NCBI GenBank assembly: GCA_002281775.1
Contig: NCGY01000003.1
Coordinates: 112,696-176,695 of the forward strand
From: Hydrogenophilales bacterium 16-64-46
GTDB taxonomy: Bacteria; Pseudomonadota; Gammaproteobacteria; Burkholderiales; Thiobacillaceae
Direction: 5' to 3'
Length of the DNA: 64,000 nt
Positions 30,048 through 32,586 of this stretch are shown piece by piece. Below the pieces are notes generated by a model. That model was given only the letters and a program-made list of their open reading frames with translations, ran no database searches and was not told the origin of the DNA. Numbering within the stretch: position 1 is the first letter of the stretch; each line of letters opens with the position of its first letter. A program made the position numbers and the translations under genes.

Positions 30048-30509
30048 TCAGTCGCCGGTCGGGGCATTGAGGGCGTGCCGGATGACGTCGGTGGTAAATC
30101 CCCGGCTTAGCATGAAGCGGATCTGTCGGGCCTTGTCGGCTGCATCGGCGGCCGGGGTGCCGAATTTTTTCTGCCATACGCTGCGGGCGCGTTCGAGTTC
30201 GCTGTCGCGATTCGCGCGCATCACGGCTTCTATCACGTCGTCACTGATGCCGTGCTGGCGCAGATCGTGGGCGAGCTTGACGCTGCCGGCGCGGGCGCGG
30301 TGATCGGCCACCCAGCTTTCGGCAAAGCGCTTGTCCGATAGCCAGTTCTTTTCCTCGAATTCATCCAGGACCGGCCCGATGGCTTCGGGCTCAAAGCCGG
30401 CACGTTCGAGCTTGCGCGTCAGATCATGGCGGCTGTGTTCGCGCCGCGCCAGATAGCCCAGCGCGCGCCGGCGCAGGCTGGCCGGGTCAGGCGTCGAATT
30501 CGCCTTCAT
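30048..30509 (-). CDS. recX: Regulatory protein RecX
   Basis: [32 protein letters not shown]. Confidence 0.93.
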
Positions 30510-31542
30510 CTTCTTCTGCCGGCATGACGGTGGGGTTGTTCACGCCGATGGCGACGCGAATCTTGGCTTCGATTTCGTGCGCGATGGCGGGGTGTTCCTT
30601 GAGGTACTCGCGGGCGTTGTCCTTGCCCTGGCCGATTTTTTCGCCGTTGTAGGCGTACCAGGCACCGGATTTGTCGACGAACTTGTGGTTGACGCCGAGT
30701 TCGACGATTTCGCCTTCGCGCGAGATGCCCTGGCCGTAGAGGATGTCGAAGAAGGCTTCCTTGAACGGCGGGGCGACCTTGTTCTTGACGACCTTGACCT
30801 TGGTTTCGTTGCCGATGATTTCGTCGCCTTTCTTGATCGCGCCGATGCGGCGGATGTCGAGGCGAACGCTGGCGTAGAACTTGAGCGCGTTGCCGCCGGT
30901 GGTGGTTTCGGGGCTGCCGAACATGACGCCGATTTTCATGCGGATCTGGTTGATGAAGATGACCAGCGTGTTGGTGCGCTTGATGTTGGCGGTGAGCTTG
31001 CGCAGGGCCTGGCTCATCAGGCGGGCCTGCAGGCCGGGGAGCTGGTCGCCCATTTCACCTTCGATTTCGGCCTTGGGGGTGAGCGCGGCGACGGAGTCGA
31101 TGACGACGACGTCGACACTGCCGGAGCGCACCAGCATGTCGGCGATTTCCAGAGCCTGTTCGCCGGTGTCTGGCTGGGAGATCAGGAGGTTGTCGACATC
31201 GACGCCGAGTTTTTTGGCGTAGCTGGGGTCGAGCGCGTGTTCGGCGTCGATAAAGGCAGCGGTGCCGCCGATCTTCTGCATTTCGGCGATGACCTGGAGG
31301 GTGAGCGTGGTCTTGCCGGAGGATTCGGGGCCGTAGATTTCCACCACCCGGCCGCGCGGCAAGCCGCCGATGCCGAGCGCGATGTCGAGACCGAGCGAAC
31401 CGGTGGAGACGGCCTGAATGTCGCGCATCACGTCGTGATCGCCCAGGCGCATGACCGAGCCTTTGCCAAACTGCTTCTCGATTTGCGACAGGGCGGCGGC
31501 CAGGGCCTTGGATTTGTCTTCGGTTTGGGCGGGGCTGGGCAT
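30487..31542 (-). CDS. recA: Recombinase RecA
   Basis: [30 protein letters not shown]; start at MPSPAQ. Confidence 0.99.
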
Positions 31543-31586
31543 GGGAATCTCCTGGGGGTGGGGCAGGCGTGGCCTGCATGGGGTGA

Positions 31587-31615
31587 ACTGTAGGCAATAC
31601 AATTATACATGTCAA
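31587..31615 (-). promoter_or_regulatory. Sigma70 promoter of recA
   Basis: Minus strand TTGACA-N17-TACAGT; two identical AATAAAAAATA tracts at 31614 and 31632; no CTGT-N8-ACAG box. Confidence 0.75.
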
Positions 31616-31698
31616 TAAAAAATATCACCTAAATAAAAAATAGCTGTTATTCGTTTCTGCCCGCCTATAATCAGCTCACCTGTTCGTTGCGAGACGTG

Positions 31699-32586
31699 AT
31701 GTCATCCCGGGAAAAAATGCTGGCCGACCTGAAATGGGCCACGCGCCAGCGGCTGCAATACATCGAATGCATGGCCTGGTACGCCGGCGTGGTCACGCGC
31801 GGCGACGTGGCGCGCGCGTTCGGGCTGTCGGACCCGGCTGCGACCAAGGATCTGAAACTGTATGGCGACCTGGTGCCGGGCAACCTCGGTTATAACCATG
31901 CGGTGTTCGGCTTTGTCCCCATGCCAGGTTTTGCGCCGGTGTTCGCCGATTTGTCGCCGGCCGTGGCCTTGCCGGCCATTGCGGCCAACCTCGCGGTGGC
32001 CAATGGGCCGTTCGGTGACGCGCGCATTTACGGCCTGCCCACGGCCAGTCTTCCCCTGCCCGTGCGCCTGCCCAGTCGCACAGTCCTGGCGCAGATCACC
32101 CGCGCCATGTTCTGTCGGCGGCAGGTGCGCGTGGTGTATCGCTCGATGAGCGGCAGCGCCACCGAGGCGCGGGTGCTGGAACCGCATACCCTGGTCGATA
32201 CCGGGCTGCGCTGGCATGTGCGCGCCTACAGCGAGGCACACGGCGAATTCCGCGATTACGTGTTGTCTCGCATCGTCGAGGCGAGCCTCTTGGAAACGCC
32301 TGCCGAGTCGGCCGAGGAATACGATGAGGAGTGGGTGGAGTGGGTGCGGCTGGAACTGGTGCCCCATCCGGGCCTGGACGCCGACCGCCGCGCCAGCCTG
32401 CTGTTCGACTACGGTGCTACGGGCGAGGTGATCGAGCTGAACGTGCGCCGCGCGCTGCTGGGCTATGTGCTACAGCGTCTGGGGGTGGACACCACCGCTG
32501 CGCATACGATGAATCCGCAGGCCTGGCAATTGGTGGTGGCCAATCGTGAGGACGTGGAGCCGTTTGCGGCGTGGGCGTTTCGGTGA
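31699..32586 (+). CDS. WYL-domain regulator, CapW/BrxR type (wHTH-WYL-C-terminal domain)
   Basis: RQRLQYIE...VTRGDVARAFGLS.P.A..DL..Y...PGNL.Y N-terminus; LEPHTLVDTGLRWHVRAY...FRDYVLSRI; PHPGL...DYG...VRRALLGY C-terminus; TATAAT at 31666. Confidence 0.88.
   Translation: MSSREKMLADLKWATRQRLQYIECMAWYAGVVTRGDVARAFGLSDPAATKDLKLYGDLVPGNLGYNHAVFGFVPMPGFAPVFADLSPAVALPAIAANLAVANGPFGDARIYGLPTASLPLPVRLPSRTVLAQITRAMFCRRQVRVVYRSMSGSATEARVLEPHTLVDTGLRWHVRAYSEAHGEFRDYVLSRIVEASLLETPAESAEEYDEEWVEWVRLELVPHPGLDADRRASLLFDYGATGEVIELNVRRALLGYVLQRLGVDTTAAHTMNPQAWQLVVANREDVEPFAAWAFR

Follow-up and report, generated by a model that had tools for sequence, protein, structure and literature searches.

We propose that a gene beside recA in Hydrogenophilales bacterium 16-64-46 encodes a CapW/BrxR-class repressor that controls recA-recX and itself, instead of an anti-phage operon, and that is released from its target by single-stranded DNA (ssDNA). 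We analyzed 64,000 nucleotides of contig NCGY01000003.1 (the window), in which this gene, for a regulator with a WYL domain, is divergent from recA-recX (Table 1). From comparisons of proteins, gene order, and promoter DNA, together with what is known of related proteins, we consider this role to be reasonably probable. On the same sequence evidence, the WYL regulator probably controls recA in place of the LexA/SOS switch.

CapW and BrxR are repressors, and CapW loses its binding to double-stranded DNA upon binding ssDNA (PMC11662680). In this family, the binding site of the apo dimer is 20-27 bp long and overlaps promoter elements, and ssDNA in the RWHVR pocket rotates the winged helix-turn-helix (wHTH) domains apart, which frees the DNA. 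Published accounts of CapW and BrxR describe defence regulators only, and the family papers that we searched make no mention of a recA-linked member. Our full-text literature search found no description of a WYL gene divergent from recA.

Family and ligand pocket of the regulator

Judging from sequence comparisons and a structural model, the 295-amino-acid protein is a CapW/BrxR-family regulator of the wHTH-WYL-WCX type whose ssDNA-pocket residues are intact. The wHTH domain (residues ~1-75) is followed by a linker, the WYL domain (E = 5.8e-15 for the Pfam model), and a WCX/BrxR C-terminal domain. Near-identical (97%) and more distant homologues carry PF26109 (WHD_BrxR), PF13280, and PF26107 (BrxR_CTD). 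When we compared the protein to the sequences in PDB with phmmer, it matched BrxR (7QFZ, 2.5e-36; 7T8K, 7.3e-35) and CapW (7TB6, 7.7e-34; 7TB5, 3.1e-31; 9C5G, 8e-30; 28-31% identity) over their full length. PafBC matched at only 5e-6, over ~100 residues, and DriD had no match in this search. The AlphaFold2 monomer model (pLDDT 86.8, pTM 0.82) has a wHTH domain, linker helices, a beta-rich WYL domain, and an alpha/beta C-terminal domain. With this model as the query, the top 15 hits from Foldseek were all BrxR or CapW (E-values of 1e-23 to 1e-19; best BrxR, 1.5e-23). PafBC and DriD appeared from rank 16 onwards, with E-values of 1e-8 or weaker and 13-17% identity. Thus, the assignment to the CapW/BrxR type in the preliminary description holds by sequence (1e-36 to 1e-30 for BrxR and CapW versus 5e-6 for PafBC), and the structural comparison is concordant. 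The protein lies outside the activator-class clusters (PafB, PafC, DriD, and DdaA), which have an HTH_11-type N-terminus and canonical WYL/WCX domains.

Residues 171-175 are exactly RWHVR, which is the CapW/BrxR signature that replaces the canonical WYL triplet. In our alignment of homologues, R175 does not vary, and conservation at R171 and W172 is 90% or higher. In CapW from R. leguminosarum, ssDNA is contacted by S144, R164, R168, and R184 (PMC11662680), and these align with S149, R171, R175, and R191, respectively. As all four contact residues are intact, the earlier suggestion that this protein senses ssDNA stands at the level of residues.

No NCBIfam model matched the protein, and its only matches in PADLOC were to models for "CRISPR-associated signalling WYL" proteins (3e-17 and 1e-12). 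Defence-finder tools would therefore mislabel the recA-linked gene as a defence or CRISPR-associated regulator.

Linkage to recA across relatives

Using protein similarity, we found recA divergent upstream of the WYL gene in 10 of 10 Thiobacillaceae loci (65-96% identity). In the closest of these (L001), the WYL protein is 96% and RecA is 98% identical to their counterparts in the window, and the type strain Thiobacillus denitrificans ATCC 25259 (CP000116.1, locus L224) has the same divergent arrangement. To reach more distant proteins we used representatives of 50%-identity clusters, at which level the whole Thiobacillus group is a single cluster and the next relatives are 38-46% identical. 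Among these, the WYL gene is divergent from recA in P0121, P0122, P0124, and P0127. In P0126, it is divergent from a RecA-like N-terminus, with dinB on its other side. Still further away, P0135 (~31-33% identity) is divergent from a truncated copy of recA, which is followed by recA-recX. Overall, each of the 51 unique loci that we analyzed has recA divergent from the WYL gene; they are from Betaproteobacteria and several gammaproteobacterial families, with 31-96% identity. The other flank of the WYL gene changes among the distant relatives (a histidine kinase, a TonB receptor, cinA, dinB, or a small ORF and then topoisomerase genes), and recA is its only constant neighbour across deep divergence. 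The specific wiring to recA that had been proposed from this one sequence is thus conserved from 96% down to ~31% protein identity.

We built a neighbour-joining tree of 137 representatives of the family, in which the recA-linked proteins form one clade. The proteins that we examined outside the clade have defence genes or sbcD as neighbours: P0130 adjoins an island with an integrase and a DEAD-MZB helicase, P0240 adjoins a ubiquitin-like/E2 operon, and P0128 (35% identity) is divergent from sbcD. The clade in this tree and the gene context are clearly congruent. The recA-linked clade would have descended from defence regulators, although the tree is in practice unrooted. We also note that the pairing of P0128 with sbcD would be another association with a repair gene within a "defence" family. 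The gap between these two genes (L018, 1-330) has an inverted repeat, TGATATGTC...GACATAT-ATCA, which contains TATTGACA and TATCACC.

Two other arrangements in distant relatives may be mentioned here. In L021 and L022, the WYL gene and the full recA-recX are separated by a truncated recA paralogue that encodes 176 amino acids, with RecA_N only (L021, 1901-2431; L022, 937-1467). In the P0126 lineage (L015, 411-2698, and L016), dinB, which encodes a Y-family polymerase, follows the WYL gene in the same direction. The 224-bp spacer between these genes in L015 has two half-site-like TATTGAAAA sequences of the TATTGA-W5 type. These are suggestive only, but they hint at a slightly larger damage regulon in this lineage.

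The preliminary description stated that the WYL gene was inserted between cinA and recA, and relatives that lack the gene agree with this. Among 80 recA loci that we sampled by RecA similarity, thiL-pgpA-cinA-recA-recX is contiguous and without a WYL gene in Zoogloea, Methylophilaceae, Methyloversatilis, Accumulibacter, and others; just two of the 80 have the WYL gene, and both are from Thiobacillaceae. Because cinA directly adjoins recA in WYL-less relatives, and because the downstream neighbour of the WYL gene varies elsewhere, the gene order indicates that cinA is an ancestral neighbour of recA and is outside the WYL-recA module. Beyond cinA in the window lie pgpA-thiL-nusB-ribH-ribBA.

We considered whether the gene might be an orphan defence regulator that was left after the loss of a CBASS/BREX-type operon, or that was inserted next to recA by chance, with no current role there. 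The family is overwhelmingly associated with defence (PMC9122601), PADLOC's CRISPR-associated models match the protein, and a mobile or defence-like island lies 17 kb away. However, the gene is intact, it has a host-like GC content, and it is retained beside recA across all of the loci above. Its neighbours in the window are recA-recX and cinA, and neither in the Thiobacillus loci nor in L011-L017 did we find a defence gene within 5-10 kb of it. Because of the depth of conservation, an orphan defence regulator is essentially excluded. Membership in the CapW/BrxR family holds by homology, but functional membership as a defence regulator does not.

Conserved DNA at the recA promoter

The divergent genes are separated by an AT-rich gap, as had been noted; its length is 156 bp rather than the rough 155 bp, and its GC content is about 41-45%, versus 65% for the window. 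The start codon of recA is the ATG at 31542-31540, and the TTG at 31602 in the list of open reading frames is an upstream extension. The start of the WYL gene (ATG at 31699) is conserved across all orthologues in our alignment. No RNA family from Rfam matched the gap.

The near-consensus recA promoter of the preliminary description, TTGACA-N17-TACAGT, was recovered by a promoter scan. It matches the consensus at 10 of 12 positions and is the sole sigma-70-like site in 31400-31800, where 0.2 would be expected by chance. From its position, the transcription start of recA is predicted to be at ~31580. All of the aligned WYL-linked regions have TTGAC[A/T]-N17-TAnnnT geometry at recA, and the 17-nt spacer holds a conserved ATAC-TTT across lineages. 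On the other strand, other Thiobacillus loci have a TTGTAT -35 that is ~16-17 bp upstream of the predicted -10 of the WYL gene; the window, L001, and L002 have a ~10-bp deletion at this -35 region.

The preliminary description also pointed to twin AATAAAAAATA tracts, which are present at 31614-31624 and 31632-31642. The alignment suggests a better description, in which each tract is the core of one of two tandem 18-bp units that we call O1 and O2 (Table 1). The tandem units came from the alignment; a repeat search of the gap, which excluded runs with units of 1-3 bases, reported nothing. A TGTA...TACA symmetry over the spacer was also described. It is present in the window, but its arms are only 4 bp and the right arm is not conserved in orthologous regions, so it is probably due to chance.

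O1 has the highest information content in the gap, as computed from the loci that were found by protein, and its consensus is GTCAATA-W5-TAYCAC. A common plan is found in the 51 aligned intergenic regions, from Beta- to Gammaproteobacteria: the -35 (TTGAC(A/T)), TA, five A/T, and TA(T/C)CAC. A second and looser copy, RTA-W5/6-TAY, starts exactly 18 bp after the first unit and is kept in nearly all of the 51 regions. In L114 and L014, the second unit at +18 fits the O1 pattern within two mismatches, and in several Thiobacillus loci O2 is a perfect palindrome (for example, TACAT-AAA-ATGTA). The weak -35 region of the WYL promoter is adjacent to O2 or overlaps with it. In geometry, O1 is compatible with a family site. 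BrxR sites have 10-11-bp half-sites and a 5-bp AT-rich spacer and overlap promoters (PMC9122589, PMC9122601), and O1 with its flanks (31607-31633) fits an 11+5+11 bp site of the CapW/BrxR family. The conserved block over the recA -35 is 9+5+9 bp, which also fits, but it has weak dyad symmetry and its second copy forms a direct repeat with it. Neither a clean palindrome at O1 nor a single large dyad across the whole block fits the sequence.

The motif travels with the WYL-recA pairing. Its core is found in 16 of 18 WYL-linked loci that were found by protein, but in none of 76 recA loci that lack the WYL gene (Fisher p = 3e-16, although this and the other p-values in this study overstate the independence of phylogenetically related loci). 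In 15 of the WYL-less loci from relatives, which we inspected, the sequence upstream of recA is different, often TGnGATAAT-like, and has no block of TATTGAC plus an A/T tract. We also scanned 185,579 species genomes with a 20-bp DNA pattern and no protein information, and obtained at least 120 matches. Among the 120 matches listed, 39 have a WYL gene (49-82% identity) beside the motif and 37 of these have recA as well. Among the listed matches with at least 50% GC, 30 of 45 have the WYL gene, and the other listed matches are mostly from unrelated low-GC genomes. The listed pairs are from Thiobacillus, Ectothiorhodospiraceae, Thiohalomonadaceae, Thioalkalispiraceae, Arenicellales, and unclassified Gammaproteobacteria. 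So, a search with bare DNA recovers new WYL-recA pairs, which supports the idea that conserved control DNA accompanies the pairing. The motif occurs once in the window (none expected by chance) and once per locus, with no additional copies in 447 kb of DNA flanking the 51 loci, and we therefore see no indication of a broader regulon nearby.

Within the block, the alignment of Thiobacillaceae shows no variation in TATCA, at 6-11 bp beyond the -35, and TAYCAY is kept down to 42% protein identity. The tract between the -35 and TATCA flips from A5 to T5 in some lineages. This fits the prediction from the structure of BrxR with DNA that the spacer is not contacted and has a narrow minor groove (PMC9122589). 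In P0127 and P0135, a diverged recognition helix accompanies a diverged left arm, GCAAGTA. We argue that the conserved block exceeds what a -35 plus AT-rich DNA would require, because of the invariance of TATCA, the distribution of the motif across loci with and without the WYL gene, and its recovery of WYL-recA pairs from DNA alone.

One of the two main alternatives is that the regulator controls only itself, or distant targets, that recA happens to share a bidirectional promoter region with it, and that the A/T block is just the -35, UP elements, and curved DNA of a strong constitutive recA promoter. The -35 hexamer forms part of O1, A/T tracts upstream of a -35 are typical of UP elements, and O1 is poorly palindromic. 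Also, in L006 and L010, the recA-sense strand reads AAAAAGTAT beside the -35, which is close to the proximal UP consensus. This explanation does not account for the invariance of TATCA(C) in Thiobacillaceae, or for the retention of TAYCAY while the intervening tract flips from A to T. Nor does it account for the absence of the block from the 76 other recA promoters, or for recA being the sole constant neighbour. We consider it to be unlikely.

The other main alternative keeps the same protein and site, but the regulator, bound at about -40.5, would respond to ssDNA by activating recA in the class II manner, as for the WYL activators PafBC, DriD, and DdaA. Every WYL regulator that has been shown so far to control recA is an activator (PMC13010146, PMC12392091). 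Furthermore, the centre of O1 is at about -40 from the predicted start of recA transcription, which is a typical class II position, and the site extends upstream of the -35. However, the protein is in the CapW/BrxR cluster and has RWHVR, and the characterised members of this cluster are repressors that release DNA when they bind ssDNA. The recA promoter has a perfect -35, a 17-nt spacer, and 4/6 matches at the -10 in every lineage, unlike activator-dependent promoters. A core promoter so close to the consensus is more in keeping with repression than with dependence on an activator. Finally, we found no DriD, DdaA, or PafBC box in the gap (31546-31698, either strand). We think that activation is quite unlikely.

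Some features of the block are accounted for by none of these explanations, including repression: the tandem 18-bp arrangement, the co-variation of the two tracts, and a possible third unit. The A/T polarity of the tracts in O1 and O2 has the same sign in 46 of 51 regions (r = 0.84, with phylogenetically non-independent regions). Both tracts are A-rich in most Thiobacillus, and both are T-rich in gammaproteobacterial lineages and in L006 and L010. In the window, CAATA (31595-31599), CAATA (31613-31617), and AAATA (31631-31635) have an exact 18-bp period, with the first copy inside the recA spacer. The CAATA at 31595-31599 may be a third, weak operator unit.

Table 1. Features of the 64-kb window that are discussed in the text, by position in the window.
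Feature	Position	Strand	Description
recX	30048-30509	-	Pfam RecX_HTH1/2/3; 23-nt overlap with the recA stop; co-transcription presumed
recA	30487-31542	-	351 amino acids; Pfam RecA (2.4e-146) and RecA_C; proposed target gene
recA-WYL gap	31543-31698		156 bp
recA sigma-70 promoter, predicted	31587-31615	-	-35 TTGACA at 31615-31610, N17, -10 TACAGT at 31592-31587
O1, candidate operator	31611-31628	+	GTCAATAAAAAATATCAC; GTCAATA-AAAAA-TATCAC, 18 bp; overlaps the recA -35
O2, degenerate tandem copy	31629-31646	+	CTAAATAAAAAATAGCTG; CTAAATA-AAAAA-TAGCTG; exactly 18 bp downstream of O1
WYL gene -10 (TATAAT), predicted	31666-31671	+	CCTATAAT invariant or nearly so in Thiobacillaceae
WYL regulator gene	31699-32586	+	295 amino acids; between cinA and recA; divergent from recA-recX
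cinA/pncC-type gene	32633-33130	-	Pfam CinA (2e-54); convergent with the WYL gene
PIN-domain protein	48820-49215		Mobile/defence-like island
MazF/PemK toxin	49589-50038		Mobile/defence-like island
MmeI-type fused restriction-modification enzyme	50227-53994		Mobile/defence-like island
HIRAN/PcfJ protein	54394-56268		Mobile/defence-like island
Mu-F/PBECR2 nuclease-toxin-like protein	56592-57665		Mobile/defence-like island
Phage tail-S fragment	57787-58272		Mobile/defence-like island
Second WYL regulator	58992-59960	-	HTH_11, WYL, and WCX; PafBC 1.3e-19, DriD ~1e-7

SOS boxes, proposed mechanism, and related systems

The preliminary description reported that the gap has no CTGT-N8-ACAG SOS box, and raised the possibility that a non-canonical LexA box explains the control of recA. 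We found neither CTGT-N8-ACAG nor GAAC-N4-GTTC in the recA-WYL gap. Across loci, an exact SOS box is upstream of recA in 0 of 51 WYL-linked loci and in 23 of 76 WYL-less loci (p = 2e-6). If one mismatch is allowed, it is present in 2 of 51 versus 37 of 76 (p = 1e-8). As above, the loci are not independent, but the difference is unambiguous in its direction. That SOS boxes are gone where the WYL gene is present suggests that the control of recA was replaced, not simply lost, which is another point against a constitutive promoter. The proposed independence from LexA is therefore supported by the depletion of SOS boxes at WYL-linked recA genes, but it is not universal, as L011 and L012 are exceptions. 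These two loci, from one distant lineage, carry the WYL gene and the O1 motif, yet they keep CTGT-N8-ACAA (CTGTATAAACGTACAA), a one-mismatch SOS box over the predicted recA -10. This lineage may have dual control by LexA and the WYL regulator.

A search with LexA from E. coli had no match in the window or in the Thiobacillus loci; this search was limited to these sequences. The genome may lack lexA, or LexA may play no part at recA. We found nothing useful in the literature on LexA in Thiobacillus. The single CTGT-N8-ACAG in the window (at 63728) is inside the coding sequence of earP and is due to chance.

Beside recA in the loci that we collected, the only matches to LexA were lexA of Xanthomonadales and a non-canonical S24 protein in L028 and L043. 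The S24-peptidase protein is directly upstream of recA in both of these loci (L028, ~2800-3390, from Usitatibacter; L043, ~1-545, from a metagenome-assembled genome (MAG) that is labelled Lysobacter). Its C-terminal domain resembles that of LexA, its N-terminal domain is unrelated, and the protein may be another alternative regulator of recA. In L036, from a Burkholderiales MAG, AGAACGAACGTTCT upstream of recA is a GAAC-N4-GTTC-type box, whereas other Burkholderiales loci have CTGT-N8-ACAG.

We propose the following mechanism. In undamaged cells, the homodimeric regulator would occupy O1 and O2, between the back-to-back promoters. Occupancy of O1 would cover the -35 of the recA promoter and occupancy of O2 would abut the promoter of the regulator, and both would be repressed. 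If ssDNA accumulates, due to damage, stalled forks, or perhaps DNA uptake, it would bind to the WYL domain in its basic RWHVR pocket. The wHTH domains would then swing apart, the protein would leave the DNA, and recA-recX and the regulator gene would be transcribed. Once RecA coats and removes the ssDNA, repression would return, which would form a feedback loop that is independent of LexA and of RecA*. Because reporters for CapW stay switched on in recA-mutant cells, we propose negative feedback via free ssDNA. Binding of the protein to O1 and O2, repression rather than activation, release by ssDNA, and the feedback loop are what we infer from the analyses above.

Several points weigh against repression by an ssDNA-released CapW/BrxR protein. 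O1 is weakly palindromic (the inner ATA/TAT and one outer base), whereas known BrxR and CapW sites are clear inverted repeats. The units are direct repeats, not inverted repeats, and their 18-bp period is not a multiple of the helical repeat. As discussed above, the position of O1 near -40 is also classic for class II activators, the -35 hexamer makes up part of O1, and the A/T tracts could serve as UP elements. L011 and L012 retain an SOS-like box. The loci are phylogenetically related, and the 37 motif-found loci cannot be used as proof that the motif is conserved. The neighbour-joining tree was midpoint-rooted and has no support values. And the window encodes a second WYL regulator, PafBC/DriD-like (Table 1), which could join damage responses. 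This second regulator has an activator-class architecture, with PafBC as its best match among solved structures, and could be a regulator of the damage response, or of an island, in its own right. The nearby mobile/defence-like island spans 48820-58272.

The proposed regulator is most similar to CapW and BrxR. It shares with CapW (7TB6, 7TB5, and 9C5G) the three-domain layout, RWHVR, the four ssDNA contacts, and a gene that is divergent from its target across a bidirectional promoter. However, the target of CapW is a CBASS operon instead of recA-recX, and its operator is one clear palindrome rather than two candidate tandem, weakly palindromic units of 18 bp. BrxR (7QFZ and 7T8K) is the best match by both sequence and structure, and the geometry of its site fits O1. 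Also, there is a second box for E. fergusonii BrxR, and one of the arms of this box is poorly conserved. Unlike the regulator described here, whose target would be a divergent housekeeping repair gene, BrxR is usually encoded by the first gene of its own operon. The recognition helices differ as well: SRQQ in BrxR from Acinetobacter and SD(P/A)AATKD here. Members of the CapW/BrxR family are domain-swapped homodimers whose repression is relieved by DNA damage or ssDNA; our model is of the monomer.

PafBC from Actinobacteria, DriD from Caulobacter, and DdaA from Acinetobacter/Moraxellaceae are also WYL proteins that sense ssDNA and control recA independently of LexA. They form separate monophyletic clusters (PMC12392091). 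They differ from our proposal in being activators, via other DNA motifs (CGAC-N7-GTCG, CGWCA-N5-TGWCG, and RecA-NDp, which is TGTCGG-type). They act on regulons through dispersed sites, and the published accounts that we consulted report no recA-adjacent arrangement. As with LexA and the SOS response, we propose a repressor over the recA promoter that is relieved by a signal derived from ssDNA. Unlike LexA, the regulator has no S24 peptidase, there would be no RecA*-mediated cleavage, and there is no LexA box at recA in the window; ssDNA would be sensed directly.

Increasingly, WYL regulators are seen as the chief alternative to LexA in the sensing of DNA damage. They are currently split into activator clades (PafBC, DriD, and DdaA) that control repair regulons and a CapW/BrxR repressor clade that controls anti-phage systems. 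A subclade of CapW/BrxR that is wired to recA would blur this split between activators and repressors, and would provide a second and mechanistically opposite route from ssDNA to recA. If our proposal is correct, the core recombinase would have here its first known WYL regulator of the repressor type. It would also suggest that regulators of defence and of DNA damage exchange roles within one family. More broadly, we propose that in Thiobacillaceae and in several gammaproteobacterial families of sulfur oxidisers, a CapW/BrxR clade took control of recA from LexA, with a direct loop from ssDNA to recA that uses tandem 18-bp operators and needs neither RecA* nor proteolysis. We view the chances that this broader scenario is correct as evenly balanced. 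The arrangement occurs in T. denitrificans ATCC 25259, which is cultured and sequenced, and the predicted operator is short and sharply defined, so the proposal is readily testable. It would explain how recA is controlled in lineages with no SOS box at recA.

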